64,000 nt of DNA, taken from contig CAYYSI010000001.1 of the NCBI GenBank assembly GCA_964474435.1, positions 270,835 through 334,834 of the forward strand, written 5' to 3'. The notes beneath the pieces are model-generated. The model did not search any database. It was not told the origin of the DNA and worked only from the letters and a program-made list of their open reading frames with translations. This stretch comes from an uncultured Candidatus Saccharibacteria bacterium (lineage in GTDB: Bacteria; Patescibacteriota; Minisyncoccia; Phycocordibacterales; UBA9973). Both the position numbers and the translations under genes were made by a program. This document shows, piece after piece, positions 17,743 to 51,852 of the stretch (position 1 is its first letter; each line of letters begins with the position of its first letter).

Positions 17743-18466
17743 TTTTGAACAATTGAACAGACTCAAATCCCTCACCCTAAGCGAGGAAGAAAAAGGGCGT
17801 ATTCGATCGCACGCCGCATTTGTGATCATGAACACTCCGGCATCATCTCGTGCAGTACGCCCGCTCTTTCAGCGTGGGATGTATCACGGACTGCGCATTG
17901 CTCTTTCGAGCTTTGCATTCTTTCTTTTTGTGGGCGGATCAGTGTCAGCAGTCGCAGATAGTGCACTTCCTGGAGACTCACTCTACCCAGTCAAGATCGC
18001 GTTTAATGAACGTGTAAAAGAAATGTTCCAAAAGACACCCGAAGAAAAAGTGGCATATGGCACAAAGCGAGTTGAAAACCGCGTCAATGAAATCAAAACC
18101 CTTGCTGCATCAAAGACATTGACCAAAGCAAAGCAAGAAACAGTACAAAAAGCTCTTGATAGTCATATCAAAGATCTCTCGACTGATCTCAATGCACTTA
18201 GTACAACTGCACCAACTGCCGCGCTCACTGCAACAACAAACCTCGAAGAAAGTCTCAAGGCAAGTAAGGCTATCTTGGAAAAGAGTGAAGACCTCGCAGG
18301 TAAAGAAGAAGCTCTCCTCGCCGTTGATGGCACACTCCAAAAAGTTTCTGACCAAGAAGTAAAAATTATTTCAAAAGAAATCGACAGTATTGCAACTGAT
18401 GTAAACACGACAACTGTTGGCACAACCACTACAGCTCCTGCTCCGAGTACTCCTGTCGGGCCGTAA
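17732..18466 (+). CDS. Putative anti-sigma factor / DUF5667-like membrane protein
   Basis: It overlaps the end of the sigma factor. It has one TM helix and an LPGDSLYPVK motif resembling DUF5667, then a long helical domain and a Thr-rich tail. Confidence 0.45.
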   Translation: MKYNFEQLNRLKSLTLSEEEKGRIRSHAAFVIMNTPASSRAVRPLFQRGMYHGLRIALSSFAFFLFVGGSVSAVADSALPGDSLYPVKIAFNERVKEMFQKTPEEKVAYGTKRVENRVNEIKTLAASKTLTKAKQETVQKALDSHIKDLSTDLNALSTTAPTAALTATTNLEESLKASKAILEKSEDLAGKEEALLAVDGTLQKVSDQEVKIISKEIDSIATDVNTTTVGTTTTAPAPSTPVGP

Positions 18467-19790
18467 TACGCTCAAGGAGTATCGACAAGCCGATAACGAA
18501 AAGCGCAACCGCACCAAATATATATGTTTTGGTGCGGTTTCGTATTGGAGTACTTTCACCTGTGCGTGCGTCGCTTGCGTTTGCAACGAGATCATCTGCT
18601 GCCACACCTGCATCAATCGGATCGTACTCAATCGTTTCAGTATTATCAGATATAGTTTTCACCACCTCCGTATTCTGATCACTTCGCGCAACTATTGAGC
18701 CTGACGGGTCAACAAGTGATGCGGTAGCAATAGACGAAATACCAAACGCAGATACGGGTATCACGACCGTTGCCTTCTCTGCGACGATTGTCATGTCAGG
18801 GATCGCAAGTTGTTTGCCGGGCACAACGACCTTCCAGCCCGTAAGGTCGACTGCAGTCGATGACGTATTTTTTATCTGGAGCGCAGTTTTGTCGAGGATG
18901 CCAAGCGATATTGCAGGTGCACTCACGACGATTTTCTTACTACCCTTCAGTGGTGCATTTTTATTGATAGCATCACTATATGCATATGATACGGTGTACG
19001 TGCCCGGATATGTATACGTGTGCGTGATGGGCGCGACAGTACGCTGCGAGATAGTCGTCCCGTCCCCCATGTTCCAATAGATACTGCCTTCGTTGAGCTG
19101 ATAGTTGTATTCAAGCAGTGGCCTTGCGTCAAATTCGTAGCTTACACCACGATATATCGTAGATGGAACAATAAATGCAATACCTGGTTTGTTGGGCGAT
19201 ACTTTGGGGATAGGATACGGATCTTCAGGGACTTCTTCTTCAGACGCATCAGGCTCATCAGAAGTGCTGGTGCCCGTAGCCTCTCCTGCCGCAGCTTTTG
19301 GCGTTGCAGCTCCCGTGATCCATTTGTCGCCATTCCATTGCATGGTGTGTTTGCTCGTTGCATCCCCTGCTGGCCAACCACCCAGATAGTTGAGTTCTTC
19401 GGCTGTAGCACCACTCGCGTCTTTGAGCACGAGGTCTTCTCCAGTGTTCGCAAACCCTCCGCCACCAAATGATCCTGATTCGTCATTGATGCCAGGTACT
19501 GCATCCGGTGCGCTTGCAGTTGTGCGCTCAAGCAAGAGATAGCTATTTGCAGCAATGCTTTTGGTAAACGTAAAGACAAGTGCGCCACCATCACCTTCGT
19601 AGAGTTTCCACCCGGCGAGGTTCACTGAACTCTGCCCATCGTTATAGAGCTCGATCCATTCACTATACTGACTACTCGCAGTGCCCATCCATGCGACTTC
19701 GGTAATCTGTACATCTGCATGTACTAGTTGAGGTACCAAAACGATACAACATGCCAAGAGAAAATATCTCATACCGAAAAAGTATGACAT
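18429..19790 (-). CDS. Lamin-tail-domain (LTD) secreted or surface protein with a C-terminal TM anchor
   Basis: It has a signal peptide and two LTD-like modules (ITEVAWMG...SEWIELYNDGQSSVNLAGWKL, plus a second LTD-like module), an acidic linker and a C-terminal hydrophobic helix. Confidence 0.6.
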   Translation of the reverse strand: MSYFFGMRYFLLACCIVLVPQLVHADVQITEVAWMGTASSQYSEWIELYNDGQSSVNLAGWKLYEGDGGALVFTFTKSIAANSYLLLERTTASAPDAVPGINDESGSFGGGGFANTGEDLVLKDASGATAEELNYLGGWPAGDATSKHTMQWNGDKWITGAATPKAAAGEATGTSTSDEPDASEEEVPEDPYPIPKVSPNKPGIAFIVPSTIYRGVSYEFDARPLLEYNYQLNEGSIYWNMGDGTTISQRTVAPITHTYTYPGTYTVSYAYSDAINKNAPLKGSKKIVVSAPAISLGILDKTALQIKNTSSTAVDLTGWKVVVPGKQLAIPDMTIVAEKATVVIPVSAFGISSIATASLVDPSGSIVARSDQNTEVVKTISDNTETIEYDPIDAGVAADDLVANASDARTGESTPIRNRTKTYIFGAVALFVIGLSILLERITARQEYSEQEL

Positions 19791-19802: not shown

Positions 19803-21767
19803 TTATTCTAAAATCTTTTTGAGGTCATCAGAAGAAATCTCTTGAATTTCCGGCGAAGGAGTAGGCACTGGAATTTCTGCAGGGCTTTCCGGCTTTGGAA
19901 TTGGTGGTGTTGGAGTTACAGGTTTTGTAGCTGACGCTGTATCACCCATGGCCTTTTGTAATGCCATTTTTAATATGTCGCGATTTTTCTCTGTGGGACC
20001 ACGCTCGGCATGTTTGACGGGCAACACTGTTTCGCGAAGTGGTTTCTCATCAGTAAACGGCGCGCCACCCTTTTCATGGATTGTTGCAGTGAGCGTCTCG
20101 GTTTTCTTTTCGACAATGATGTCTTTGGTTGGTGAACCATCGATCGCATCAAGCAAATGCTTGAGTTCAGACGATGCGGCAATTGGCTTTTCTGGTACTG
20201 CGTGTACTTGCACTGGAGTTTCAGTTGGGGCTGATTCTGTCGCAACCTTTTTGATCAATGCCTTTGCAAAGGGTTTGTGCATAGGTGCGGGATCCTTTGG
20301 TTTGAACATACGTGGAAGAATACCCTGCGCAGGAGAAGCAGTGTTTGGAGCTGATATTTTGGGTGGATTGTATGGAGCCGATGCACCAGGCTTTGTAGGA
20401 CTGGATTGGTATGCTCGATTGGGGTCTTCCCACTTCTTTTTAACTTTTTCTTCGGGTACGTCATTTGGATCCGGTGCAAACCAGTCAGCGATATTTTTCT
20501 CAACAGTTTCTTTGGGATTGGCATAGGCTGCGCGCGATGCTTCGATCGCATCGTTGCGGAATGTAATCGCAGGACGTGCAAGTGGTGGCAATGTCTTTGC
20601 AGAAAATGGCTGGGAGCCGATATCATTGATCATGAGCGACAGATAGATCTCTGCCATACCGAGGTTGATGATGTCGTTTGCGGTAAACTGTGGTGCAAAC
20701 ACTTTTTCAAGAAGCTCTGCATCAAGCGGCCCTACACGGAAACTCACTGTCGTCCCCACGTTGCCAAACACGGCATCACGCACCTTTTCTTCCATTTGTG
20801 CGACGTACTGGTGTGCAATGATGAGCGCGAGTTTGTATTTGCGCGCCTCTGCCAAAATGTCAGCAAATGTTTCGTTTGCAAATGATTGGAATTCGTCGAC
20901 ATAGAAATAAAAGTTTGAAAGTCCGCCCATTTGGTTTTGAGAGAGCTCTGCGCGACTCATTGCGGCAAGGTAGATCTTGGTGATGATCATTGATCCAAGG
21001 AGTGAAGTGTTGGTGTCCCCAATGCGTCCTTTGGAAAGGTTGATGATGAGGATCTTTTGTTCGTCCATCACCTTGCGAATATCAAAGGTGGACTTGGATT
21101 GGCCAATGATGTTGCGTACAAGTGGGTTTGCGGTGAATTGTCCGATCTTGTTTTGGATCGCAGGTACGGCTTCTGCGGCCATACGTTCGGTATAGTTTGC
21201 AAATTCTTCGGTCCAAAATGCTTTGACTGCAGCGTCAGTGATGTTGTCCACCACTTTTTTGCGGAAATTCTTTTCAGAAAGCATGCGGTTTACTCCAAGC
21301 AATGTCGCACCTGGGTACTCAAGAAGTGCCAAAAGTGTGTTCGTGAGGATGTACTCCATTCGAGCAGACCATGCATCAACCCAAATCTTCTTGAATGTAC
21401 TCATAAGTCCAGAGACCACGAGGTGGCGACGATCAGGACCGACGTCTTCGAGGACGTTGAATGAAATAGGATTCTCTGTATCAAACGGCGCAAAGTACAC
21501 GACGTCCTTGATACGATGCTCCGGGATGTACTCAAGCATCTTTTCGGCAAATGAGCCGTGTGGATCGAGTACTGCCACACCTTCACCGTGGTTGATGTCC
21601 TGGATCGCCATGTTTTCAAGCAAGGTAGATTTACCAACACCTGATTTACCGATCACGTACATGTGTCGTGTGCGGTCGCGGCTTTTGATACCAAACTTGA
21701 TGCGTTGTCCACGCGCATCAGTCTCTGCGAAATACGTAATGTGCTCGGGATCGTATGGAACGGTCAT
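19803..21767 (-). CDS. P-loop ATPase of the TraD/VirD4/TrwB type-IV-coupling-protein family (no TM helices) with a long Pro/Thr-rich disordered C-terminal tail
   Basis: HMYVIGKSGVGKSTLL...VAVLDPHGSF is a TrwB-like Walker A / DPxG block. There is also a hhhhDE Walker B (FYFYVDEFQ) and IIAHQ. The last ~230 aa are low-complexity P/T/A/K-rich. Confidence 0.5.
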   Translation of the reverse strand: MTVPYDPEHITYFAETDARGQRIKFGIKSRDRTRHMYVIGKSGVGKSTLLENMAIQDINHGEGVAVLDPHGSFAEKMLEYIPEHRIKDVVYFAPFDTENPISFNVLEDVGPDRRHLVVSGLMSTFKKIWVDAWSARMEYILTNTLLALLEYPGATLLGVNRMLSEKNFRKKVVDNITDAAVKAFWTEEFANYTERMAAEAVPAIQNKIGQFTANPLVRNIIGQSKSTFDIRKVMDEQKILIINLSKGRIGDTNTSLLGSMIITKIYLAAMSRAELSQNQMGGLSNFYFYVDEFQSFANETFADILAEARKYKLALIIAHQYVAQMEEKVRDAVFGNVGTTVSFRVGPLDAELLEKVFAPQFTANDIINLGMAEIYLSLMINDIGSQPFSAKTLPPLARPAITFRNDAIEASRAAYANPKETVEKNIADWFAPDPNDVPEEKVKKKWEDPNRAYQSSPTKPGASAPYNPPKISAPNTASPAQGILPRMFKPKDPAPMHKPFAKALIKKVATESAPTETPVQVHAVPEKPIAASSELKHLLDAIDGSPTKDIIVEKKTETLTATIHEKGGAPFTDEKPLRETVLPVKHAERGPTEKNRDILKMALQKAMGDTASATKPVTPTPPIPKPESPAEIPVPTPSPEIQEISSDDLKKILE

Positions 21768-23246: not shown

Positions 23247-24929
23247 TTATTCTTTTGCTTCAAGTACCATCATCATACGCGCAATGCGAATCTCATCATA
23301 CGAATACCTGTCTCCGAGCGCTTCGCGTATCGGCGCGAGCTTGGTCGTGTCGGCAGATTGAAATGCGCGTTTGATCTCTGGGTACCCTTTGCGGATCTTG
23401 TCCGTGATCAGATAGTCGATGTCATCATATGAGAGACGACCGTTCATGACGAGCTTTTCTAGATGGCCAAATATTGTCACTGGTACGAGGCCGCGCTCTT
23501 TGCCGATCACACTAATCGGTTTACCTTGGAGGACGAGCATGAGAGTGGTTTCAAGTGTGTCGCCTTTTTCCTTCTTCACCTTTGGAGATTTTTTGGTCAC
23601 CGTGCCGCCATTGGCCAAGATGAAGTTGTGATGCATTGTTTCAATGTCGTCTGCACGCATATCACCGAATGTCAGTGCTGCAGACTCTGACTGCTGCGCA
23701 AACTTTCCATCGACTTCGAGAATACGCGGGTGGACCTGGAATGTTCGCTGGTTCCACCCAAGCAAGTGCAGGCCATCAAGTGTGCGCACACGAGAGAGCG
23801 CCACGTACCCTTGTCCGTATTCAAATACTTCGCGCAAGTCCATCACTGCGGCGTCCATACTCATCCCCTGACTTTTGTGGATCGTTATCGCCCACGCGAG
23901 CCTCAGTGGGATTTGTTGGATCATTGCCTTTTGTTTCCCATTTTCCTCCACGACCCATTCAGTCGGCTCGACAACAATACGCTCGCCTTTGTGCGTCTCG
24001 ATGATCGGATACTTCGTCCCCTGTTCAAATCCAGTGACCGTTCCGAGTGTGCCGTTCACATATCCTTTTTGACTATTATTTTTTGTACACATGACAATTG
24101 CGCCAACCTTGAGGACAAGTCGTTCTGGTGAAAGGCATCCCTTTTGCAAACTTGCAACCAGACTGTCCTTGCCTTTAGTCTGCATTGAAAAAATGTTCGG
24201 AAGTGTGGTGAGTTTTTCGAGCTCACGCGTATTGATATCGTCGACGTCGACGTTGTGTGCAAAGAGCCGTGTCACACTACTTTCGTGATCGAGTGCGTGC
24301 TCGGCAGATATCTGTCTCTTTTGCAAATGATCATGATGCATCTGGTCATATTCATTTTTGCGAATGGCAGAAAGGATGGAGAGGAAGTTGGTATCGCTTT
24401 GACGGTGTTGTTCAGTCAGGTAGCACATCACCGGTCGCATCCGTTTCCATGCGTCTGACTCAAATGCAAACTGCGCCTGATCTCCTCCTTTGGTGACTGG
24501 CGGAAGTTGAAAGAAATCTCCGACAAGTATCACCTGCATGCCACCAAATGCTTCGTCGCTATGTCGCACCTCGCGACAAACCATGTCGACCATATCGAGC
24601 GTGCGTGCATCGATCATCGATACTTCATCGAGTATCAACACTTTGGTACCTTGAATACGGCGTACGAGATATTCAGTTGTTGTGATGTGATCAAGGTCGT
24701 ATGGTGCAAGACTTCGTCTGATACCAATACCGCTCCATGAGTGGATCGTCTGTCCATGAATGTGTGTTGCTGCAATACCTGTCGATGCGGTGATCGCAGG
24801 CTCGATGCCATGCTCGCGCAGGTATGCGACGTACTGATTGATGGTATGCGTTTTGCCCGCGCCTGGCTCTCCGGTGAGGAACACATTTGCTCCCGTTTTG
24901 AGTATGGTGAGTGCTTCGGCTTGGGTCAT
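23247..24929 (-). CDS. Pif1/RecD-family ATP-dependent DNA helicase
   Basis: Walker A is FLTGEPGAGKTHTI and Walker B is VLILDEVSMID. The motifs VILVGDFFQLPPV and LAWAITIHKSQGMSMD are present, with a ~150-aa C-terminal extension. The start is at MTQAEAL; the upstream ORF extension is not coding. Confidence 0.7.
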   Translation of the reverse strand: MTQAEALTILKTGANVFLTGEPGAGKTHTINQYVAYLREHGIEPAITASTGIAATHIHGQTIHSWSGIGIRRSLAPYDLDHITTTEYLVRRIQGTKVLILDEVSMIDARTLDMVDMVCREVRHSDEAFGGMQVILVGDFFQLPPVTKGGDQAQFAFESDAWKRMRPVMCYLTEQHRQSDTNFLSILSAIRKNEYDQMHHDHLQKRQISAEHALDHESSVTRLFAHNVDVDDINTRELEKLTTLPNIFSMQTKGKDSLVASLQKGCLSPERLVLKVGAIVMCTKNNSQKGYVNGTLGTVTGFEQGTKYPIIETHKGERIVVEPTEWVVEENGKQKAMIQQIPLRLAWAITIHKSQGMSMDAAVMDLREVFEYGQGYVALSRVRTLDGLHLLGWNQRTFQVHPRILEVDGKFAQQSESAALTFGDMRADDIETMHHNFILANGGTVTKKSPKVKKEKGDTLETTLMLVLQGKPISVIGKERGLVPVTIFGHLEKLVMNGRLSYDDIDYLITDKIRKGYPEIKRAFQSADTTKLAPIREALGDRYSYDEIRIARMMMVLEAKE

Positions 24930-24995
24930 AGGTGAAGCATATTTTACTACAAATGAGAGGTATACGTGAATATATAAAAAAGGTAGAATGCATGT

Positions 24996-25940
24996 ATGAA
25001 ATCTCGCAAACACAAAAAAAGCGCAACAATCATCCTCGTATGCGTGTTTGCAGTCGGCATTGGACTCTTTGTGCTCTATAGAAACAAGGCGAGTATTCCG
25101 ACGAATCCCGCACAAGCAACGATCCCTACACCAGATACCGTCCCAACATCCGTCACTGAGCCACTTACGCCTTCGACCTCGATTCCGACCTATCACGTAC
25201 TCACAACGACGACGAGTACTCCGGGGGCTGAGCTCGCCAAAGAAGTTGGTATGAAAAATGTCCCGTTTACACTCGCGCTTAACCGCCTCGATGTAAAACA
25301 CATCCCACAAGATGCCAAGCTCATCATTCCTGATTCATTTGCAGACACCGACATCTATGCTCCATTTCCTGAAACCATTTCCTCGGCACAAGATATTCCA
25401 AAATTATTTATTGTCTCAAAACGCGTCCAAGCATTTGCTGCATACGAGAACGGCAAGCGCGTACGCTGGGGCACAGTCAGTACTGGAAAAAGTACGACTC
25501 CAACTCCCAGCCGCCTCTATGCAACCAACTGGAAAGGTAAACTTGTGACGAGCACACTTGAGGACGCATATCAGTTGCCTTGGTATTTCAACCTCGACAG
25601 CCTCGAAGGTATCTCGATGCACCAGTTTGATCTCCCAGGCTATCCTGCAAGTCATTCATGCATTCGCCTCTCCGAAGAAGACGCGATGTGGATCTATGAA
25701 TGGGCAGAACAATGGGTGCTCGCCGCTGATGGACAAACAATGCTCGCAAACGGTACTCCAGTGATTATCTTTGGTGACTATGCCTATGGCAAAACTGCTC
25801 CTTGGAAAAAACTCGCCGAAGATCCGACTGCAACCACACTCTCTACTGATGAGTTACGCGACATTGTTGAGAAGTATCATACTGAAATACAAGAGCGAGC
25901 TGCAGAACGAGAAAAAGTATTACATCCATCTGCACAATAA
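24996..25940 (+). CDS. L,D-transpeptidase (YkuD domain), N-terminally anchored
   Basis: An N-terminal TM helix and a Pro/Thr linker are present. The catalytic motif is ISMHQFDLPGYPASHSCIRLSEEDAMWIYEW (H...SHGC). Confidence 0.7.
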   Translation: MKSRKHKKSATIILVCVFAVGIGLFVLYRNKASIPTNPAQATIPTPDTVPTSVTEPLTPSTSIPTYHVLTTTTSTPGAELAKEVGMKNVPFTLALNRLDVKHIPQDAKLIIPDSFADTDIYAPFPETISSAQDIPKLFIVSKRVQAFAAYENGKRVRWGTVSTGKSTTPTPSRLYATNWKGKLVTSTLEDAYQLPWYFNLDSLEGISMHQFDLPGYPASHSCIRLSEEDAMWIYEWAEQWVLAADGQTMLANGTPVIIFGDYAYGKTAPWKKLAEDPTATTLSTDELRDIVEKYHTEIQERAAEREKVLHPSAQ

Positions 25941-41545: not shown

Positions 41546-41569
41546 TATACAAATCAAAAAACTACAGTC

Positions 41570-42025
41570 ATGAAAAAAACATTGTTCCTTATCAGCTTTA
41601 TAGGTATTACTACTGCTTTATTTGCACAACGCGATTGGACTCCCTCTACCTGGCCTGGACAAGAGTTTGTGAAAAACGGCTTGCCCAACAACCCAAAACT
41701 TGGAGATCATGATGAAACAACCGGCTTTCTGTTTGAGAACCCTGTTTCAAAAGATAAAAATGGTGTTATCGACTTCCCTATGGCAATCGGCATAAACGTG
41801 ATCCAGCTTAACCTTTGGTTTTATGAATCAGGTGTATGGCGCCAAAAAAATGTACGCCTCCTCAATGCCCCAAAAGATGTTGATGGATGGCTCCGTGCAT
41901 GTGTCAACAGGAAAAGAATTGGCTCTGATGGCAACTATGATATCCCCGTACAACTAAACCTTTCTCGGGATATTGTTCAACAGCAAAATGGTGGATCAGC
42001 CCCAGATTATTACTGCATGTTCTAA
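41570..42025 (+). CDS. Hypothetical secreted protein (signal peptide MKKTLFLISFIGITTALFAQ)
   Basis: ORF with an N-terminal signal peptide, in an AT-rich accessory block. Confidence 0.45.
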   Translation: MKKTLFLISFIGITTALFAQRDWTPSTWPGQEFVKNGLPNNPKLGDHDETTGFLFENPVSKDKNGVIDFPMAIGINVIQLNLWFYESGVWRQKNVRLLNAPKDVDGWLRACVNRKRIGSDGNYDIPVQLNLSRDIVQQQNGGSAPDYYCMF

Positions 42026-42173: not shown

Positions 42174-43274
42174 ATGACAAGTTTAATCTTTCTTATTTTT
42201 GGGCTAAGCCTATTAATATGGATATTGATCGGTTATTCAAAAAGCCGGCGCCTCAACTTAAAATTAGCAGAATATTTCTGCATCGGAATTGGTGATCGTA
42301 TTCTCATTATCATTGATGGAGACCATGTCCCATGGATATTTAGTGTAGTACCAATACCTCCTGGTTTTAAACATATTTGGCCAAAATTAAAATGGTGGGA
42401 ATGGGTTGACGGAAAAGGTAAAATGAACGAAAAAATCATTAACCATCAAACCGGTAAGGAAGAGGCAAAGTATAAAGAAATCAAAACCTTTCCTAGTGCG
42501 CCCGATGGGTTCATGGGGCAACGAGAAGAATTTGTTCCATCTATTCGGAAGTTTGAACCAACTGGATATAATATCGAGGTTCGTACACTCGATGGATATT
42601 TGGTAAACATTATTCTTCCCCTTGTATACTGTGTCTTTGATCCTTACAAAGTTGTTCGTTATGCGTTATTCAAAATGGTTGGCGAACTCGAAGCCAATAA
42701 TGCAATTCGTACATGGGCAGCCGTTAAAACCGTACAGGAAATCCAGAAAACAAATATCAATGAAGTCTCTGCGATATCTGTAAAAAATCCTGATACCACT
42801 AAGCCGGATATGGATTTAGAAACGTACCTTGATGAAGTTCACTTCAAAAAGCTCGGTTTCGAAATCGACAAAAAAGGACTGGTTATTATCTTGAGCGCTG
42901 AAGCAAAAGAATTCTTTGATTTGGTTAATAAAAATAAAGTTATCCAACAAGAAGGAGAAAATGCTAAGGCAAAATTAGTAGCTCGAACAGAAGAACTGAA
43001 AGTTGAGCTCGCAGAGGAGACACAGGAAACCAATCTATTTGAAGCAAGAATTACTGCTGTTGGAAAAGGTTTTGAAGAAATTGTTGATAAGATTTACAAG
43101 GGAAAAGCTCTTGTTGCCGCTCAACATCCATGGACATTAGTCGAAGTAAAACACGAAGAAGATGAAATTGGAGAAAAACTTGTAGAAGGTTTTCTTTCTA
43201 AAATTCCTAGCGTTGAATCAACCATATTCAAGAAAAAAAACAAAAAGGAGGCTCCGGATGAAGAAACTGCGTAA
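42174..43274 (+). CDS. SPFH/band-7 (flotillin/stomatin-like) membrane protein with a C-terminal coiled coil
   Basis: N-terminal TM helix. The SPFH-like core is EVRTLDGYLVNIILPLVYCVFDPYKVVRYALFKMVGELEANNAIRTWAAVKTVQEIQKTNINEV. It is followed by a Glu/Lys-rich coiled coil. Confidence 0.5.
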   Translation: MTSLIFLIFGLSLLIWILIGYSKSRRLNLKLAEYFCIGIGDRILIIIDGDHVPWIFSVVPIPPGFKHIWPKLKWWEWVDGKGKMNEKIINHQTGKEEAKYKEIKTFPSAPDGFMGQREEFVPSIRKFEPTGYNIEVRTLDGYLVNIILPLVYCVFDPYKVVRYALFKMVGELEANNAIRTWAAVKTVQEIQKTNINEVSAISVKNPDTTKPDMDLETYLDEVHFKKLGFEIDKKGLVIILSAEAKEFFDLVNKNKVIQQEGENAKAKLVARTEELKVELAEETQETNLFEARITAVGKGFEEIVDKIYKGKALVAAQHPWTLVEVKHEEDEIGEKLVEGFLSKIPSVESTIFKKKNKKEAPDEETA

Positions 43275-44205
43275 TTTCAAAAAAGAGTTTTTAATTCAAC
43301 TCTCCAAAGCAAAGCTAGAATGCGATGCAGCCTGGAAGAAAATTAAAAAGATTTCTACACCTTACATTGTGTCTACAAAGGCATGGTATAAAAAACAGAA
43401 CAAGTTTTTGCTCTTACTTTCTGGATTATTTATCACTGCGATAGTGCTTACTTTTGTAGGTATTCGTGGAGTTTATACTGATGTATCAAGTAAAGTTGTA
43501 GATATTTCTTCTGAAAATGAAGAAGAGTCTACAATATTCAACGACGTCATTTTTATCCTTAAAAATCCACGATTCTGGGCAGTACTTATTGTCATCATCG
43601 GTGCATTACTTCTAATGCGATGGGTGTGGCGTAAAAAGGCAACACCAGTAGTAGTTACTTCACCTGAAAAAACAGATGAGGAGAAAAAGGCAGACAAGAA
43701 AAAAGAAGCCTTAAAGCCTATCACTCCAAAATCCTTCTCGTGGCGTATTAAAAATTTCGCTTCGATAGTGTTTATCTGTGCTCTTGCTCTAGGAGGAATC
43801 TTTTGGGCAAATAGCATGGGCATCAATCTCAAGCGAGACTTTAGTTACCACGGACCCGATCCCTATGCACAACGTCCTAAAGTAGAGGCTGCACCAGGTA
43901 TCACCTATAGTAACAATTTACCGTTACAAAAAGGCGTTCCGTTCACAGTGTACTGGAAGAATTCAGCAGGATCATTTGCTCCTGTATTATACGGGACAAT
44001 AACCATTCGGTTTATCAAAGAACATGATCCCACAGATAACTTTGATTTGCGTATCACTCGTACTCCGTACGAATTGCGCACTGAATGGGCTATCAGCGAA
44101 GGAGACCATGAGAATGGTAACTATACAGCTACGCTTTTAAGCGAAAGCACAACTGTAGAATACCGGGAGCAACAAACCGTACCATTGTTACACTTTGCAC
44201 AATAA
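43258..44205 (+). CDS. Hypothetical multi-TM membrane protein with a C-terminal beta-rich domain (possible NfeD-like partner of the SPFH protein)
   Basis: It overlaps the end of the SPFH gene. It has three hydrophobic helices, then a beta-rich C-terminal domain. The NfeD assignment is an inference from its operon context. Confidence 0.35.
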   Translation: MKKLRNFKKEFLIQLSKAKLECDAAWKKIKKISTPYIVSTKAWYKKQNKFLLLLSGLFITAIVLTFVGIRGVYTDVSSKVVDISSENEEESTIFNDVIFILKNPRFWAVLIVIIGALLLMRWVWRKKATPVVVTSPEKTDEEKKADKKKEALKPITPKSFSWRIKNFASIVFICALALGGIFWANSMGINLKRDFSYHGPDPYAQRPKVEAAPGITYSNNLPLQKGVPFTVYWKNSAGSFAPVLYGTITIRFIKEHDPTDNFDLRITRTPYELRTEWAISEGDHENGNYTATLLSESTTVEYREQQTVPLLHFAQ

Positions 44206-44258
44206 TCAAATAGCGACAAACACAAAGCCAGATCATGATGATCTGGCTTTTTATGTTC

Positions 44259-44594
44259 TTAGTTGGGATATTTGAGTTGTTGGATCGGGGGTGGAGTAAA
44301 TGTTTGTTGTTCGGTAGTGATCGTTGCACCCTGGATACCAAAGGTACGGGTGAGTATAGTGATAATCCCAAAGACCCCAAACATAATCACAAATCCGACG
44401 ACACCCCACAGCATATGCTCTCTCCCCTTTTTGCGGTCTTCTTGGTTGTTGGCACCACGGATGTATTGCATCACACCCCAGAGAAAGACCACGAGCGCAA
44501 TAATAAATGCAAACTCGATAACAGGATTGATGACCTTGGCATTCAGTTTGAACAGCAAATCATCGACAGAGTCAGCGTATGCGATCCACGTCAT
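44259..44594 (-). CDS. Pilin-like paralog 1 (two-helix VirB2/TrbC-like domain; 111 aa)
   Basis: FAFIIALVVFLWGVMQYIRGANNQEDRKKGREHMLWGVVGFVIMFGVFGIITIL is helix, then a charged loop, then helix. It is shared with the four upstream paralogs. Confidence 0.5.
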   Translation of the reverse strand: MTWIAYADSVDDLLFKLNAKVINPVIEFAFIIALVVFLWGVMQYIRGANNQEDRKKGREHMLWGVVGFVIMFGVFGIITILTRTFGIQGATITTEQQTFTPPPIQQLKYPN

Positions 44595-44597
44595 AGA

Positions 44598-44975
44598 TTA
44601 GTAACAGACGCTACCGTGAGCAACTGTACCTGGAGGACAAGTCAAATCATACTGTGGAGCTTCATTTGTACCCAAGACATTACCAGCGATACGGATGATA
44701 CCCCAAACTGATACAGCAACAAAGAGACCGATGAGGCCGTTGAGCATGACCTTGCGCTTGTCTGCAAGCTTACCTGGATCCTTTTCTGCGATGTATCGGA
44801 ATACGCCGATGAGGAACCAAAGTGTCATGAGTGCCATGATCACTGTGATCGCGGTGACCAACCAACTTTGTCCGCTACTGATGACTTGGTTAACATAGGT
44901 TGGTCGAAAGTTTTGTGCAAGTGCCAATGTTGGGATAAATGCACTACCGAACGAAATGAGAGCTATTTTTTTCAT
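44598..44975 (-). CDS. Pilin-like paralog 2 (signal peptide + conserved two-helix C-domain + Cys-containing tail)
   Basis: ITVIMALMTLWFLIGVFRYIAEKDPGKLADKRKVMLNGLIGLFVAVSVWGIIRIAG. Confidence 0.5.
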   Translation of the reverse strand: MKKIALISFGSAFIPTLALAQNFRPTYVNQVISSGQSWLVTAITVIMALMTLWFLIGVFRYIAEKDPGKLADKRKVMLNGLIGLFVAVSVWGIIRIAGNVLGTNEAPQYDLTCPPGTVAHGSVCY

Positions 44976-45054
44976 GTTATAAAAATTATATTAATAACCT
45001 GGTAATTATGCTAAACAGGTATCCAAAGTATAGCATATATCACGAGAGCTTTGG

Positions 45055-45843
45055 CTACTTTTTGAGATAGGTGGTTTGAAGCAGTGGTACTGCAGAGCCC
45101 GTACCGAGCGTTGTACTCACAATATTGATGATGCCCCAGAGACTCGTCATCACAAAGAGACCGATGAGACCCGCTACGATGAACTTCTTGCCCTCTTCTT
45201 TCTTGGCGGAGTCTGATGCAGCAATAAACTTGAACACTCCCCAGAGGAAGAACATAAGCGCAAGTGCAAAGATAATCGGGATGATTGCAACAAGGATAAT
45301 ACACTTGACCCAAATCAGGATATCGAGGAGTGAGAGGAACTTGATCGCACTACAGCGCGCAAGCTCGGCTGAGCTTGACTGGGGCGCGGACCCAATGGCG
45401 GTGTTTTGACTACTATCGGTGCCGTTATATATAGTCGTCGCTGGTACCCCGCTACCGAGCGTCCCAGGGGTGTAGTATCCATGATCATATGCATCACATT
45501 TGACCTTGTTTTGTGCGTAGTAGGTGATGCAACACTCTGTATGGTTGAATCCTTGAATATCGTTACACTGCCCTGCTGAGTTTGTCGTGGTTGGAGGAGT
45601 AAGGTCTCCGCCGCCATTTTGATAAAGCGAGCATGCAGCCGCATTAGCATTTTGAGACCCAACACCGCAGCAACCAGGATAATTGCTTGCAGTAACTGGA
45701 GAACACGATGTACCTGTATCTACTACCGTTTCTGGCGCATTATCCCCTCCTCTATTTACTGACTGCTTGCTTTCAGCAAACACCATAGTGCTCACACCTA
45801 TAGAGAGAGTCAGGAGAAATAGTATTGAGAAAATCTTTTTCAT
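45055..45843 (-). CDS. Pilin-like paralog 3 (signal peptide, Cys-rich variable N-domain, conserved two-helix C-domain)
   Basis: IIFALALMFFLWGVFKFIAASDSAKKEEGKKFIVAGLIGLFVMTSLWGIINIV. Confidence 0.5.
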   Translation of the reverse strand: MKKIFSILFLLTLSIGVSTMVFAESKQSVNRGGDNAPETVVDTGTSCSPVTASNYPGCCGVGSQNANAAACSLYQNGGGDLTPPTTTNSAGQCNDIQGFNHTECCITYYAQNKVKCDAYDHGYYTPGTLGSGVPATTIYNGTDSSQNTAIGSAPQSSSAELARCSAIKFLSLLDILIWVKCIILVAIIPIIFALALMFFLWGVFKFIAASDSAKKEEGKKFIVAGLIGLFVMTSLWGIINIVSTTLGTGSAVPLLQTTYLKK

Positions 45844-45846
45844 AGA

Positions 45847-46632
45847 CTAGTTTGTGATAGAGTTAACGGTTCCAATAATAGCATTGGTGATGGTCCAGGC
45901 CCCAAGGATAAGGAGTGTGCCGATGATCGTATACCAAAACATCTGCTTGGCCTCCTTGATCTTTTCTGGTTTTCCTTGTGCAAGAATGAACTTGAGTCCT
46001 GCCCAAAGAAAAAATATGACAATAAACGGGATCGCGATCTTGAGCAGTGTGTCGACGAAAAACTTCACCGCATCCTGGATAGTGTTTACCTTGAGAGGGT
46101 TTTGAAGTCTGACATCGAGCTGAAATCCGCTTGCTTGACCAGAATTGTTGGTCGTAGAGTTAGGATTTTGCTGGGCGGTAAAGACTCCTCCGCCTGTTGT
46201 CTGTGTGCCGGTCGTAGTTGTGGTCGTTGTAGGAGGGTTTTGTGTTGTTGTCGTAGTACCCTTGGTCGTAAAGCTGGTAGTGCCTTCATATTCCTTTGTT
46301 GTCGTAGCATCTTTGGCAGAGATGCGCACAGTATAGGTAGTACCAGGCGTAAGGTTATCTGCATCACAGGGAGCAGATACTATTCCTGACGGAAAATCAA
46401 CGCCGTTACAAAAACTCACCGTGCTCCCACCGTTTTTCAAAATAAAGATGTCTCCTTTTATTGGCACAGGTACAATTGAAGTTGCAACAATGCGCGCAGT
46501 TGTTGTTTGAGGAGTGACAGTGATCGGTTTAAAGGAGTTTGGTTGTACTTGCGCCCCTACCGTACTAAACAGAAAAAGAGAAAGGATCAGTACTGCAGCA
46601 AAAGTGTATTGGAAACGCAATTTCATAGTCAT
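45847..46632 (-). CDS. Pilin-like paralog 4 (signal peptide, Ig/FN3-like and poly-Thr variable region, conserved two-helix C-domain)
   Basis: IPFIVIFFLWAGLKFILAQGKPEKIKEAKQMFWYTIIGTLLILGAWTITNAI. There is a TTTTTQNPPTTTTTTTGTQTTGGG low-complexity linker. Confidence 0.5.
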   Translation of the reverse strand: MTMKLRFQYTFAAVLILSLFLFSTVGAQVQPNSFKPITVTPQTTTARIVATSIVPVPIKGDIFILKNGGSTVSFCNGVDFPSGIVSAPCDADNLTPGTTYTVRISAKDATTTKEYEGTTSFTTKGTTTTTQNPPTTTTTTTGTQTTGGGVFTAQQNPNSTTNNSGQASGFQLDVRLQNPLKVNTIQDAVKFFVDTLLKIAIPFIVIFFLWAGLKFILAQGKPEKIKEAKQMFWYTIIGTLLILGAWTITNAIIGTVNSITN

Positions 46633-46641
46633 AGTATAGCG

Positions 46642-47277
46642 CTACTCTCCGAGAAACTCTACTCCACTCTTTTTAAAGTCATCATTAAGGAGTGCGTTCA
46701 TGATAGTCCGCACGATGAGCCATGAGCATAAGATAATAATAATACCGAGGACGACATTACCAATTATTTTTTTCAAGTTCGCAATCTTGCTTGGATTACC
46801 TTCGGCAGTAATATATTTGAATCCTGCATACATGAGGATTGTGATAAATATTGGTATAAGGAGCGTTGTTATAAAAAACGTCAACAAGTTGTTAAGGAGT
46901 CGGAATACATCGGTAAAGGTGCACTTGTCCGTACATGGAATGATCGTACTCACCACATCATCACCTTTTTCGGTTGTTGCATTTGGTGAAAAGCAGCTTG
47001 GATCAGGCTCCATATCAATGACCCCATCACCTTTGCCTGTATTGGGATCAATCGTATCAACACCATAATGGTCAGCTTTGTGGTCGCCATTGCCAATGCC
47101 ATATCCATAATTTTTGCCGTCGCCAACCTGATTGTCTTTGCCATCATCACACTCTGTTGCGGCGAGTTGTGTTGTAGCAGGGATTATAGCGGTAGGATTT
47201 ACTTGTGCATCACTGATCATGGGTACAAAAAGTATCATCAGGAGTGAGGCGACAATAATGTGTTTCTTTGTATGCAT
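46642..47277 (-). CDS. Pilin-like paralog 5 (signal peptide, Asp/Gly-rich variable region, conserved two-helix C-domain)
   Basis: IPIFITILMYAGFKYITAEGNPSKIANLKKIIGNVVLGIIIILCSWLIV. Confidence 0.5.
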   Translation of the reverse strand: MHTKKHIIVASLLMILFVPMISDAQVNPTAIIPATTQLAATECDDGKDNQVGDGKNYGYGIGNGDHKADHYGVDTIDPNTGKGDGVIDMEPDPSCFSPNATTEKGDDVVSTIIPCTDKCTFTDVFRLLNNLLTFFITTLLIPIFITILMYAGFKYITAEGNPSKIANLKKIIGNVVLGIIIILCSWLIVRTIMNALLNDDFKKSGVEFLGE

Positions 47278-47284
47278 AGTATTA

Positions 47285-48595
47285 TTATCGAGTGATTGAT
47301 TGGAGATCGCGAGTAGTGTCATATATTGCAGTCGTAGCTTCACTTTTACCACTCGTTACTGCCGTAATCATATCACGAAATAGTGACTCACTCTTTGCCG
47401 GATTTGGGTTAGGCCATGCAAATGCCGAGAGGGCTGCTTTGAAAAATACTGAAACATAGGGATTGTTTTGTTGAACCAACAGCAAATCTCGGCGAACTGG
47501 TGGGAGCGAGAGGGACTTTGATAGTCCGTCGATACTTGGACTGCTTGCGATATATGTTGCAGCTGCATATGCGGCAACTGGGTTCGGCGCAGCCTTTAAC
47601 ATACCCACACCGATAAACGAGCCGAATGTTACTGGTCGAGCAGCAGGATCTGTCTGGAATACTTCTGCAACATCAAAGTTGAGGTTTGGATTTCGTGACT
47701 GGATCGTAAAGAGTTCACTCGCACGTCCTATATAAAACGCTGATTTGCCTGACAAAAATTGCTCTATACTCATCGGCAGCGCATTGTTCCATGAATAGTT
47801 TACATTGGTTGGATTTGAAAAACTTGTGAAGTACTCGAGTGCTTGGGCCGTTGGTGGCACTGAGCTTCCTGCTGGAGCATTGCCGAGCATCACTTGATTG
47901 GTATTACTTGCCCCATCATATCCAATGATACTGTTCCCTGTCTGCATAAAGAGTGTCGAGAGAATATCGGTAACATTGTTTACATTTGCCGCAGTACCAA
48001 GGGCGACAGCTGATTGAGTGATGTTGTTTCGTGCATCCCGCTTTGTCAAAATGGGGACTGATTGCTGGAGATTGCTCCATGTCTTTGGTGGAATAACAAA
48101 GCTTGCTTGTGCAAGAATATCCTTGTTGTAATAGACGACAATAGGGTCAACCACGAGCGGCAGTCCTACAATACCTTCCTTGGTCAAAAATATTTGAGAT
48201 CCATCAATGTTCGCGTCACGATAGTCACGCTCACTGTATGCTGCATAGGGTATCACGTAGAGCTTATCTTTAAATTGTGAGAAAATTTCTGAAGAAAAAA
48301 TGACGAGATCAGGGGGGGTTCCGTCTGCGAGAGCAACAATGAGCTCTTGTGGCATCGTATTGGGATCGTGCTCTGAATACGTGATCGTATATCCATTGCC
48401 TCCTATGTTAAAAGTATCTAGATAGCCTTGCATGAGACTCTGTGGAATAACACCCCATACAACGACGGTGCCTTGAGGAGTAGTTGTTGCTGCTTTTTTG
48501 GTGCCGAATGAAATAAGTCCTGAGAACACAAGTACGGCCCCAGCAAATACTACAACAAAAATAATGACGAGAATTGTTTGAAATGATGATTTCAT
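47285..48595 (-). CDS. Extracellular solute-binding-protein family-1 (MalE-like) homolog with an N-terminal TM anchor; orphan (no ABC permease or ATPase adjacent)
   Basis: GTVVVWGVIP, TPPDLVIFSSE and GLPLVVDPIVVYYNKDILAQA..IPPKTWSNL parallel the MalE blocks (ITVW.., GPDIIFWAHD, ALPIAVEALSLIYNKDL..PPKTWEE). Confidence 0.5.
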   Translation of the reverse strand: MKSSFQTILVIIFVVVFAGAVLVFSGLISFGTKKAATTTPQGTVVVWGVIPQSLMQGYLDTFNIGGNGYTITYSEHDPNTMPQELIVALADGTPPDLVIFSSEIFSQFKDKLYVIPYAAYSERDYRDANIDGSQIFLTKEGIVGLPLVVDPIVVYYNKDILAQASFVIPPKTWSNLQQSVPILTKRDARNNITQSAVALGTAANVNNVTDILSTLFMQTGNSIIGYDGASNTNQVMLGNAPAGSSVPPTAQALEYFTSFSNPTNVNYSWNNALPMSIEQFLSGKSAFYIGRASELFTIQSRNPNLNFDVAEVFQTDPAARPVTFGSFIGVGMLKAAPNPVAAYAAATYIASSPSIDGLSKSLSLPPVRRDLLLVQQNNPYVSVFFKAALSAFAWPNPNPAKSESLFRDMITAVTSGKSEATTAIYDTTRDLQSITR

Positions 48596-48598
48596 ACG

Positions 48599-49120
48599 TT
48601 ATGGTTTCCTAAAAAGTATAGCATAGTGATGCTCCCCTGCTTCGAGTTTGTCAGTCATGACAGTCAGTCCCATCTTTGCACACAATGCTTCGGCCTGCTC
48701 CTTGCGAAAGACTGACTCAGGTCGAGGCCCCATACCACCGAATGATTCACTCCAATCGACGACCAACATGCGACCGCCCGGCTTTAACACCCGAAGCGCT
48801 TCGTGCATACAGCCTTCTTTGTCCTCAAGTTGAAACAAAATGTTGGACATAATGACAAAGTCCATACTTGCGTCCCCAAGTTTTGATCCCCCATTGATTT
48901 CGATATCTCCCCAGAGTGGATGGAGGTTGCCAATATGCATTTCAGTTGCTTCACGTGTGAGTCGCGCAACAATGTCGCGATGAATTTCTATTGCAAAGAC
49001 ATTGCCTTGTGGCACGAGTGCCGCCGCCGCACGAGAAAGGAATCCTGATCCCGCACCAAAATCAGCAACACTGTCAGTTGATTGTAGATTGCATACGGCG
49101 AGCATCGCGGATGGCTCCAT
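48599..49120 (-). CDS. Class I SAM-dependent methyltransferase (small)
   Basis: Motif I VADFGAGSGFLS and post-I acidic IEI. It is the first gene of the minus-strand operon ahead of the SBP-like and pilin-like genes. Confidence 0.6.
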   Translation of the reverse strand: MEPSAMLAVCNLQSTDSVADFGAGSGFLSRAAAALVPQGNVFAIEIHRDIVARLTREATEMHIGNLHPLWGDIEINGGSKLGDASMDFVIMSNILFQLEDKEGCMHEALRVLKPGGRMLVVDWSESFGGMGPRPESVFRKEQAEALCAKMGLTVMTDKLEAGEHHYAILFRKP

Positions 49121-49150
49121 GAACATGCAATTAGTATAGCAAGTTCTCTC

Positions 49151-49386: not shown

Positions 49387-51852
49387 CTAGAGGCAAGTAA
49401 CCGAAGCAAGTGTATCCCCTGCTCTCAATTTCATAATAGTCACACCTTGTGTTTGGCGTCCTGATGATGGGATGGTTGCAAGGTCTACTCGGATGACCTG
49501 ACCTTTTTTGGACATTGCGACGAGCTCGGTACCATCGTGCACTACCATTGCTGCCATGATTGCACCAGTCTTTGCGGTAACTTTTGCAGTCTTGATGCCT
49601 GAGCCACCACGCTTTTGGACTTTGTATTCTGTGATCTCTGTTTTCTTGCCGATACCATTTGCACCAAGCGTGAGCATGTATGTGCCTTTTTCTTCGGCAA
49701 CGACGTTTGCGCCAACAATACTGTCTCCTTTGCCAAGTTTCATTGCACGCACGCCACCTGCAGTACGTCCCATTTCGCGAATATCTGATTCTTCAAATCG
49801 GATTGATTGTCCAAGGGTTGAACCGAGGATCACACTCTGCCCTTTTTGCACACGAAGCACTGCCTCAAGCTCATCTCCTGCATCCAAACGGATGGCGATG
49901 ATACCGCTGCGTCTGACGTCTTTGAAGCTATCGTACGTCACCTTCTTTGCGGTTCCCTTTTTCGTAATCAAAAAGAGTGATGCTTTTTCTTCTTTTGCTT
50001 TCTTTGGTACTGCAAGGATAGAGGTGACTTGTTCATCTCCTGCGAGTGAGAGGAAGTTCATGATCGATTTACCTTTTGTAGCACGCTTGCCTTCAGGGAT
50101 TTCGTACATCTTGATCTGGTATGCCTTTCCTTTGTTTGTAAAGAAGAGGAGGTCTGAATGAGTATCAGTTGTGAGAAGCATCGTGACAAAGTCTTCTTCT
50201 TTGGTTTCGAGGTCTATCACACCGACACCTCCACGTTTTTGCTGTTTGTATTCACTCGGATCAGTGCGCTTCACATAGCCACCTGCAGTGAGCACGAGTA
50301 CTGATTCTTTTTCAGGAATAAGGTCTTCGTCAGATATCATTTTTGTGCCACCACTCATAACCTTGGTCTTGCGTTCATCACCATATTTATCTTTGATTTC
50401 ACGAAGCTCATCTGCGATCACTTTGAAAATTTTCTTGGTACTTGCAAGCAAACTTTCGAGCTCTGCAATGAGATCCTGCTTTTCTTTGAGTTCATTTTCG
50501 ACTGCCTTGCGTTCAAGTCCTGCAAGTTTCTGAAGGCGCATTTCCAAGATCGCATCTGCTTGGAGATCTGAGAATTTGAATTCCTTGATCAAGTTGAGCT
50601 TTGCAAGAGCAGCATCTTTGGATGCACGAATAATTGAAATGACTTTGTCGATATGATCGAGTGCCTTTTTCAAGCCCAGCAAGATATGTTCACGATCCTT
50701 TGCCTTTTTGAGATCAAATGCAGTGCGTCGGCGCACGACAACTTCACGGTGTGCAATAAATGAAGTAAGAATTGATTTGATTGATAATGTCTCAGGTACA
50801 CCATCAACGAGGGCAACCATGTTGTAGTGAAATGTTTGTTCGAGTTGTGTGTGCTTATATAAATAGTTGAGGACTTTTTGGGGATTGATACCTGTTTTGA
50901 GAGTGATCACAACACGCATATCTGCCGCTGAGTGATCTTCGAGACCTTTGATGCCTTCGAGCTTTTTGTCTTGCACAAGAGATGCGATGGACTCAACAAA
51001 GTTTGACCGCACGACTTGGTATGGCAGCGACGTAACCGTAATGGTATACATACCACTCTTTGTTTCTCCAATCTCTGCCTCACCGCGACAGACAACTCCG
51101 CCACGACCGGTTGCAAATGCGTGTGCGATATCCGCTTTGTTAAAGACAATGCCGCCTGTTGGGAAGTCAGGGCCCTGCACGATCTCTGCGATGTCTTCGT
51201 TACTTGCACCATCGTTCTCGATCATGTAGAGCGCGGCGTCGACGATCTCGCCGAGGTTGTGAGGCGCAATGTTTGATGCCATACCCACTGCAATACCGAG
51301 CGTACCGTTGAGAAGCAAACTTGGGACAGCTGTTGGCATCACTGTTGGTTCGTTGATTGTTGCATCATAGTTGGGACGATAATCAATCGTATCCTTTTCG
51401 ATATCACGAATCATTTCCATTGCGAGCTTGCTCATACGCGCCTCGGTATAACGCATCGCAGCCTGACTATCCCCATCAACCGATCCAAAGTTTCCCTGTC
51501 CTTTGATAAGGGGGTATCTATACGCAAATTCTTGCGCCATCTTTACCATTGCATCATAGACTGACTGGTCGCCGTGCGGGTGGTATTTACCGAGCACGTC
51601 ACCGACAATCAATGCGCTTTTACGAAACTTTGCAGATGCAACAATACCGTTTTTATACATTGAGAATAAAATGCGTCGGTGTACAGGTTTGAGACCATCA
51701 CGCACGTCAGGCAATGCACGATCGGTAATGACCGACATCGCGTAGTCGATGAAGCTCGTACGCATTTCATTTGCAATGTTTACTTGCAACACACTCTGAC
51801 GAGGTGTTAGAGGAGTCTCTGGAGATGTTTCTGGAGGGGTCTTTTTGGCCAT
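49387..51852 (-). CDS. gyrA: DNA gyrase subunit A
   Basis: Active-site region [10 protein letters not shown] (Tyr), an N-terminal breakage-reunion domain, and a C-terminal beta-pinwheel with a GyrA box-like QxRGGxG motif ([10 protein letters not shown]). Length is 821 aa. Confidence 0.9.

Follow-up and report, generated by a model that had tools for sequence, protein, structure and literature searches.

In the window considered here, namely the 64,000-nucleotide stretch of contig CAYYSI010000001.1 (assembly GCA_964474435.1), five consecutive minus-strand genes encode proteins sharing a C-terminal helical hairpin, and they follow the genes for a solute-binding protein (SBP) homologue and a small methyltransferase. 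With a probability of about 0.6, this locus is best explained as a chromosomal array of VirB2-like (PF18895) pilins in a patescibacterium of the class Paceibacteria, that is, a pilin kit of type IV secretion system (T4SS) type made up of five old and non-interchangeable paralogues. The proteins are designated P1 to P5 by rising coordinate, which runs opposite to their position in the array:

44259-44594, minus strand: P1, array position 5, 111 aa
44598-44975, minus strand: P2, array position 4, 125 aa
45055-45843, minus strand: P3, array position 3, 262 aa
45847-46632, minus strand: P4, array position 2, 261 aa (259 aa from the second ATG at 46626)
46642-47277, minus strand: P5, array position 1, 211 aa
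47285-48595, minus strand: SBP homologue, 436 aa
48599-49126, minus strand: S-adenosylmethionine (SAM) methyltransferase, 175 aa from the ATG at 49126 (an upstream GTG is also open, giving 196 aa)
49387-51852: gyrA, 260 nt upstream of the methyltransferase gene
44224-44250, between the convergent stops of P1 (44259) and of the gene ending at 44205: hairpin with a 12-bp stem, terminator-like on both strands

The tight packing of the five pilin genes (44259-47277) that had been noted in the original prediction is borne out, with gaps of 3-79 nt, and the SBP homologue and the small methyltransferase, correctly placed ahead of them on the same strand, are conserved same-strand neighbours in related loci as well. 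Along the whole seven-gene cluster, from the methyltransferase to P1, the intergenic gaps are 3, 7, 9, 3, 79 and 3 nt, and the hairpin at 44224-44250 is probably a bidirectional terminator closing the cluster.

The kinship of the five proteins lies in their C-terminal modules, which align as the helix-loop-helix with FLWG motif described at the outset, i.e. a FLWGV..YI-type helix, a Lys-rich loop and a second helix. Hydropathy analysis indicates a pair of transmembrane (TM)-like segments in each of P1-P5 and, besides, a signal-peptide-like N-terminal segment in P2-P5. When 10,903 six-frame open reading frames (ORFs) were scanned with a hidden Markov model (HMM) built on the five C-domains, the matches in the window were restricted to P1-P5, and those in related loci formed runs of 4-9 ORFs, all but one directly downstream of an SBP gene. 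With HMMs from which one array position was left out at a time, 49 of 49 left-out members were recovered each time (median E 4e-9 to 5e-21), the members from the window at E 5e-10 to 1e-21 (1.4e-17 for P3 and 8e-17 for P2), against an E of about 2e-3 for the best non-pilin ORF. Generic TM composition is therefore excluded as the source of the similarity, and the possibility raised together with the original prediction, namely that the resemblance was compositional only, is set aside along with chance.

Regarding family membership, P1, P4 and P5 score 31.8, 38.2 and 36.4 bits with Pfam PF18895 (T4SS_pilin), above its gathering cut-off of 26.6 bits; P2 and P3, at 24.3 and 24.7 bits, fall about 2 bits short and are linked to the other pilins through the leave-one-out HMMs mentioned above. 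At the level of sequence, the assignment of P1-P5 to the 'T4SS pilin' family of the candidate phyla radiation (CPR) can be regarded as established. The homology to classical VirB2 appears plausible but weak. Matches to PF04956 (TrbC/VirB2) are sub-threshold for P4 (21.8 bits, E 2e-4) and P5 (18.7 bits, E 2e-3) and missing for P1-P3, and the PF04956 label is precomputed for many position-2 orthologues. NCBIfam NF045849, which describes a pilin-like protein of a Mycoplasma integrative and conjugative element (ICE), matches P1 marginally (40.8 bits for a cut-off of 40 bits, over 69 of the 80 model positions) and P4 below cut-off (24.5 bits). In hhalign comparisons with six annotated VirB2/TrbC genes from plasmids, the position-1 profile reached a probability of 69% (E 4e-5), colinear over both helices, and the pooled profile of 245 sequences 23% (E 9e-4), while two small alignments (A3 and A4) gave 4% and 0.5%, the signal emerging only from the larger position-specific profiles. 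PsaF, the top match of a profile search of PDB sequences (E 0.0065), was rejected as spurious. Of the two affiliations originally put forward, VirB2/TrbC or CPR 'T4SS pilin', the latter holds through PF18895, whereas the former is left with PF04956 scores below cut-off and a plausible but weak VirB2 homology. Contrary to what had been claimed, such genes do not escape standard annotation pipelines, as orthologues bear Pfam labels and are named 'pilin' by NCBI and 'Type IV secretion system pilin' by JGI.

The reach of this arrangement was appraised in 80 species-level genomes retrieved with the SBP alignment (SBP identity 33-70%), which are labelled as Nomura-, Zambryski-, Campbell-, Wolfe- and Kaiserbacteria, Paceibacter and others. 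An SBP gene followed by a pilin array was found in 77 of the 80 loci, the contigs of the remaining three ending too early; upstream, gyrA and a detectable methyltransferase gene are almost always present, and beyond the array come convergent unknown genes and then rbfA-infB wherever the contig reaches that far (about a third of the loci). Arrays comprise 4-9 pilin genes where the contig is long enough. Named SBP and pilin homologues belong to Candidatus Paceibacterota, Nomurabacteria and other Patescibacteria metagenome-assembled genomes (MAGs). Many of the closest MAG contigs are titled 'uncultured Candidatus Saccharibacteria bacterium', though their gene content and homologues fit Paceibacteria/Nomurabacteria; these titles look like loose taxonomic labels.

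Orthology was assessed on the arrays of exactly five genes, available from 49 species. C-domain identity amounts to 0.43-0.58 within a position and 0.17-0.35 between positions, and the nearest C-domain in another genome occupies the same position in 242 of 245 cases; the five paralogues are thus position-specific orthologues, old and non-redundant. The spacing is likewise regular, with median gaps across 48 species of -4 nt from the SBP stop to the position-1 start and then 15, 2, 78 (position 3 to 4) and 9 nt. Contigs of the same species are 100% identical to the locus, and no population variation is visible among them.

Beyond the common hairpin, the five members differ markedly in what precedes it. 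P5 comprises a signal peptide, an Asp/Gly-rich ectodomain (18 Asp and 18 Gly), a conserved Cys pair and the pilin hairpin, and its ectodomain contains a module of about 70 aa that is 45-70% identical in the position-1 orthologues of closer relatives. Within this N-domain (46903-47205, minus strand), the Asp/Gly-rich stretch, e.g. DTIDPNTGKGDGVID, has conserved Cys on its flanks, and DTIDPNTGKGDGVID resembles, as far as the residues tell, calcium-binding repeats of DxDxDG type. P4 consists of a signal peptide, an FN3-like β-sandwich, a disordered Thr-rich linker and the hairpin, with 47 Thr in total; in its AlphaFold2 (AF2) model, the sandwich spans residues 35-125 (pLDDT >90), the linker 131-178 (pLDDT <50) and the hairpin helices 185-217 and 222-260, and Foldseek matches the sandwich to FN3 domains with TM-scores of 0.65-0.70 normalised to the target. 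The poly-Thr/Ig-like N-domain proposed earlier thus takes the shape of a predicted FN3-like sandwich with a disordered Thr-rich linker, and P4 orthologues contain 0, 1 or 2 FN3-like modules. The difference for P4 between gene calls on Logan contigs (259 aa) and the 261 aa given here does not reflect strain polymorphism, as the contigs are 100% identical and the choice of start codon explains it. P3 combines a signal peptide, a Cys-rich ectodomain (10 Cys) and the hairpin. No usable Pfam match was obtained for the ectodomains of P3 and P5, even at E<=1.

The two remaining members are small. P2 is made of a signal peptide, with a conserved ALA-Q cleavage-like site, the hairpin and a C-terminal tail bearing a conserved Cys pair (C...C), and has no ectodomain. 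P1, the smallest, is devoid of both signal peptide and ectodomain and consists of two long helices, modelled by AF2 as a long helical hairpin (helices 3-46 and 51-84), and a conserved C-terminal tail; its orthologues are 57-86% identical and 109-125 aa long. Among orthologues, the part preceding the C-domain ranges from about 24 to 501 aa at positions 1-3, for medians of 25 aa at position 4 (with one outlier of 130 aa) and 7 aa at position 5, and ectodomain modules are common to closer relatives only and occasionally to positions 1 and 2. In P3-P5, the ectodomains are borne by linkers of low complexity. The view of the N-terminal parts of P3-P5 as variable exposed domains on a conserved anchor is supported, in line with the hypervariable N-domains first described (Cys-, Thr- or Asp/Gly-rich, or absent) and with orthologue lengths of tens to about 500 aa.

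The SBP homologue matches Pfam SBP_bac_8 (PF13416, 74.2 bits) and SBP_bac_1 (PF01547, 60.1 bits), both above cut-off, and has a single predicted N-terminal TM segment (residues 8-26). Its closest solved relatives are sugar SBPs, namely 4r9f (E 1e-9), 4qrz and 1eu8, and all the named ones among its 878 homologues stem from Paceibacteria-type MAGs. As no ORF with Walker A plus LSGGQ, the hallmarks of ATP-binding cassette (ABC) ATPases, occurs in the window or in 89 related loci, and no permease family appears in Pfam scans of the window proteins, the SBP homologue has no cognate transporter genes in its neighbourhood and is locally orphan. Compared with MalE/UgpB-type SBPs, which it resembles by Pfam matches along most of the protein and by sugar-binding nearest solved relatives, it differs by the lack of a permease or ATPase gene in the window or within 8-10 kb in the 89 loci, by its N-terminal TM anchor and by a gene that always runs into a pilin gene. 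The SBP and P5 genes appear, from their spacing, to be co-transcribed and translationally coupled. The suggestion that the SBP is unusually conserved was dismissed, its median cross-species identity being 49% vs. 78% for GyrA and 44-60% for the pilin C-domains. Further upstream, the methyltransferase is a class I SAM-dependent enzyme by Pfam (Methyltransf_31/11/25 above cut-off), with only weak NCBIfam matches (ArsM/UbiE-like); it lacks a TM segment and is predicted to be cytoplasmic. With phmmer at E<=1e-5, most of the 80 related loci turned out to have its gene ahead of the SBP gene, and it went undetected in six that still have gyrA. By this gene order, it can be considered a conserved upstream neighbour of the array.

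As for expression, the octamer GCTATACT occurs in 10 exact copies in the window for 0.77 expected, all on the coding strand and just upstream of gene starts (12177 and 13673 on the plus strand; 17157, 21778, 45027, 46633, 48615, 49133, 59181 and 60643 on the minus strand). This octamer looks like the extended -10 promoter of the organism and stands in several cases 6-10 nt before the ATG, a spacing that would imply leaderless or near-leaderless mRNAs. The cluster itself contains the following elements:

49133..49140, minus strand: GCTATACT, extended -10-like, 6 nt before the methyltransferase ATG
48615..48622, minus strand: GCTATACT, 19 nt before the SBP ATG and within the 3' end of the methyltransferase gene, candidate promoter for SBP and P5
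46633..46640, minus strand: GCTATACT, 0 nt before the P4 start and 6 nt before the second ATG at 46626, candidate internal promoter
44976..45054, minus strand: P3-P2 gap of 79 nt, with GCTATACT at 45027-45034 and a stem-loop ACCUG...CAGGU at about 44993-45023

Related motifs precede the methyltransferase gene in 24 of 48 related loci, the SBP gene in 26 and position 2 in 9. The gap between positions 3 and 4 has a median of 78 nt and is never less than 51 nt in 48 species, 45 of which present TGnTATA(C/A)T followed by a short stem-loop; the stem is mostly ACCUG...CAGGU and is replaced in a few lineages by a different stem at the same place. Its folding energy is modestly below that of shuffled controls (mean z -0.83), and no Rfam match was found for the P3-P2 gap, which can be viewed as a candidate internal promoter with a 5'-terminal mRNA hairpin for P2-P1. 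A promoter of their own for the two small pilins would be consistent with P1/P2 as abundant subunits. The single operon initially envisaged is upheld in so far as seven closely spaced genes lie on the same strand, yet the cluster may comprise several units because of the promoter-like motifs inside it.

With respect to secretion genes, the array is flanked by the SBP and methyltransferase genes, gyrA and unknown membrane proteins rather than by virB1, virB3 or virB4, and it does not lie within 20 coding sequences of virB4 as far as the window and 10 kb rightward show. The TraD/VirD4-like ATPase (19803-21767, 654 aa), through which a tie to a T4SS had been drawn, does have a genuine domain (PF10412, TrwB, 44.7 bits; PF02534, T4SS-DNA_transf, 39.2 bits) and shows NCBIfam equivalog scores that are all far below cut-off. 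Proteins of this class are reported to occur throughout the Patescibacteria, with 5,713 copies counted over 2,918 genomes; they are seldom encoded close to virB4 and are dispensable in Southlakia epibionticum ML1 (PMC12102498). Because the gene stands 22 kb from the array, among unrelated neighbours (an LTD/PKD surface protein, a DUF5667 protein and a PIF1 helicase), and because the product has no TM segment and hence no membrane anchor, the link to the pilin array drawn in the original prediction is weak and unsupported. Beside the ATPase gene are encoded a putatively secreted protein that combines two lamin-tail domains with one PKD domain (18429-19790, minus strand), the DUF5667 protein (17732-18466, plus strand) and, 1.5 kb away, a PIF1-family helicase of 687 aa with a C-terminal HTH_40 (23247-25310, minus strand).

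Arrays of VirB2-like pilins in Patescibacteria are already published, and the present locus is a further case of that kind. Using PF18895 and PF04956, such pilins were found in 1,948 patescibacterial assemblies, with 441 arrays of 2-11 genes, a mean identity within arrays of 25% and a suggested role in host-strain adaptation; a pilin gene was near virB4 in 1135 of the 1948 assemblies (PMC12102498). An array being defined there as at least two pilin genes in tandem or with one non-pilin gene between them, the five tandem genes of this patescibacterial genome are an array in that sense. In S. epibionticum ML1, an essential pilin series lies inside the T4SS cluster (PMC10633639), and in metatranscriptomes of Paceibacteria the T4SS pilins are among those signal-peptide genes whose expression is highest (PMC10936435). 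The arrays of S. epibionticum ML1 (SEML1_0006-0019) and of Nanosynbacter lyticus TM7x ('Sec secreted array') belong to the same PF18895 family and are alike in tandem size (within 2-11), low paralogue identity (17-35% here for the published mean of 25%), monoderm CPR host and chromosomal location. The array described here departs from them in being outside a T4SS cluster and following gyrA, methyltransferase and SBP genes, and in having position-specific orthologues in 49 species and sizeable ectodomains on three members. What the present analysis adds is the gyrA-methyltransferase-SBP-pilin layout, the position-specific orthology, the ectodomain pattern and the gap before the small pilins. 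In the main text of the survey, the part searched, solute-binding, substrate-binding and gyrA are not mentioned, and N-terminal is used for TrsD, VirB1 and VirB9 only, not for pilins (PMC12102498).

The likeness extends, to varying degrees, to other pilins. Agrobacterium VirB2, RP4 TrbC and F TraA are similarly small helix-loop-helix membrane proteins with a leader and a basic loop, and the Gly-rich helix 2 of VirB2 (...GGIVIMFGA...) recalls that of P1 (...VGFVIMFGV...), the profile similarity being weak and colinear. In contrast to diderm VirB2 systems, PF04956 scores stay below threshold here and no virB1, virB3 or virB4 stands beside the array, whereas in the plasmid loci compared virB2 lies between virB1 and virB3; diderm pilins are also without large N-terminal domains, unlike P3-P5, and the leader is absent in P1. 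The Mbov_0395 family (NF045849) likewise comprises small 2-TM proteins in a monoderm T4SS context, with the Mbov_0395 gene in a mobile conjugative element and, by locus-tag number, near a VirB4 gene (Mbov_0397). Judging by locus-tag numbers, Mbov_0395 is probably the ICE gene CDS15, described as VirB3-like in the literature. For the archaeal Ced/Ted DNA-import pilins (PDB 8dfu), from another domain of life, the fold match is no better than for unrelated hairpins and there is no match at the sequence level. Bartonella and Anaplasma also have several divergent VirB2 paralogues encoded in succession, which have been considered as a source of surface variation; they belong to diderm pathogens and are located within or close to the virB operon, unlike the array here, whose paralogue order and identity are conserved across species. 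Such conservation of each paralogue from species to species speaks for separate structural functions and not for variation.

Elsewhere, the window has the gene content of an ordinary chromosome (topA, relA/spoT, parB, miaA, clpB, infB, rbfA, gltX, hisS, pyk, dprA and others), with dprA-topA at 1054-4278 and parB at 5886-6842; an exact-sequence look-up of topA, aimed at the left flank, yielded no record. Cumulative GC skew declines steadily along the window down to a minimum near 58-60 kb, beyond which it climbs, and a replication origin or terminus could lie near the array. Three plus-strand genes converge on the array, at 41567-42025, 42174-43274 and 43261-44205, and encode a protein of 152 aa with a signal-peptide-like start, one of 366 aa with an N-terminal TM segment and one of 314 aa with three TM-like segments. 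None of them gave a match in Pfam (even at E<=1), NCBIfam or the PDB, nor did a PDB sequence search with the 366-aa protein. Same-sized unannotated genes occur at the equivalent place in related loci with gene calls, with sequence similarity in a minority only.

As a T4SS-type pilin kit, the array may be pictured as follows. The hairpins of P2-P5 would be inserted into the membrane by Sec and that of P1 by YidC or the like, and, under the positive-inside rule, both termini should face the exterior and the basic loop the cytoplasm. The hairpins would then be extracted from the membrane by a VirB4-type T4SS whose genes lie in another part of the genome and be assembled into a surface fibre or stub, with P1/P2 as its shaft, or core, and P3-P5 as minor subunits that offer adhesion modules to the host cell. 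The tethered SBP would be a conserved extracytoplasmic partner, which may bind a ligand or host glycan or act as an assembly factor. This picture of pilus assembly is an inference modelled on VirB2/TraA pilins and on the pilin series that is essential in S. epibionticum.

A number of observations weigh against such a scheme. Among the ORFs scanned in the 64-kb window and in the 10 kb beyond its right end, no VirB4, VirB3, VirB6 or TrsD gene was found. None of P1-P5 reaches the PF04956 gathering cut-off of 27.9 bits, four of the position-specific profiles give less than 5% probability against VirB2 in hhalign, and no solved pilin came up when PDB sequences were searched with a profile of the pilin alignment. 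The structural route laid out with the original prediction did yield AF2 models of the hairpin, but fold searches do not set it apart from other hairpins. P1 is without the leader peptide typical of VirB2, and a helical lattice of VirB2 type would hardly accommodate three subunits out of five with ectodomains of 100-500 aa, unless those subunits are rare or at the tip. The adjacency of the SBP gene may partly be general synteny, the gyrA and rbfA-infB flanks being conserved too. Besides, no pilus has been seen for any patescibacterial T4SS; reviews speak of one as a possibility, and uptake from the host is discussed along with it (PMC12857230).

Part of these observations would be accommodated if the hairpin were a mere membrane anchor, P3-P5 being adhesins with P1/P2 as small partners and forming with the SBP a T4SS-independent envelope complex, without any filament, which would serve host binding or ligand capture. 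This explanation, which we hold to be rather unlikely, agrees with the failure to find a T4SS core gene near the locus, with large variable ectodomains on flexible linkers like those of surface-display proteins, with an SBP that is likewise TM-anchored, with five fixed orthologous positions suggestive of a defined complex and with fold evidence for 'pilin' that is non-discriminating. It accounts poorly for the profile kinship to TrbC/VirB2 and to the Mycoplasma ICE protein (Mbov_0395, two tags from the VirB4-family Mbov_0397), for the PF18895 family being essential and located inside the T4SS cluster in Saccharimonadia (PMC10633639) and for the nearness of pilin genes to virB4 in more than half of the patescibacterial assemblies cited above, counted as those with both genes (PMC12102498). 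That the array would instead hold interchangeable major pilins, one or few of them used at once for antigenic or host-range variation, is suggested for Patescibacteria (PMC12102498) and proposed for the Bartonella/Anaplasma paralogues, and low paralogue identity (17-35%), very variable ectodomains and internal promoter-like motifs that could permit differential expression are all in its favour. Yet position-specific orthologues whose order is the same in 49 species and whose C-domains share 43-58% identity at a given position, a fixed gap pattern, the lack of any sign of recent duplication or gene conversion, two positions (4 and 5) without ectodomain, bar the 130-aa outlier at position 4, and fully identical same-species contigs make it very improbable.

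The SBP gives rise to two further proposals. Together with the hairpin proteins, it may constitute a new SBP-dependent device, the pilins serving as conduit or membrane pore, for the uptake of host sugars or metabolites without ABC permease. The chances of this being right are slimmer still: while the SBP-pilin junction is invariant, with stop and start overlapping or nearly so, the SBP is locally orphan in the window and all 89 loci, and the T4SS review speculates on pili serving uptake from the host (PMC12857230), no energising component is at hand, there is no precedent for a 2-TM pilin as permease, more distant relatives have anything from 4 to 9 pilin genes, the SBP diverges more quickly than its housekeeping neighbours (median identity of 49% vs. 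78% for GyrA) and an ABC permease could lie elsewhere in the genome. In a bolder proposal, which is improbable as it stands, the hairpins and the SBP would form one extracytoplasmic machine, that is, a heteromeric fibre built from five fixed types of subunit, with swappable host-binding ectodomains and an SBP capturing or escorting host sugars or glycans at the base or along the fibre.

For the largest patescibacterial class, the preferred reading of the locus as a five-part pilin kit means that the pilin set would be fixed rather than a variable repertoire, that three of its parts would be carriers of exchangeable adhesion-type domains and that it would always be coupled to an orphan sugar-type binding protein. 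Patescibacteria are believed to subsist on host cells, and no T4SS other than theirs, which includes the pilin series, has been reported to be essential for the growth of its bearer. If the SBP and the hairpins did make up a single machine, it would be a nutrient-acquisition organelle based on T4SS pilins and not a device for conjugation or effectors. Should the coupling of SBP and pilins prove to be only synteny, the locus would be one more instance of a published type of gene array; should it be functional, it would provide a handle on the 'uptake from host' role through the ligand of the SBP and the contacts between SBP and pilins.

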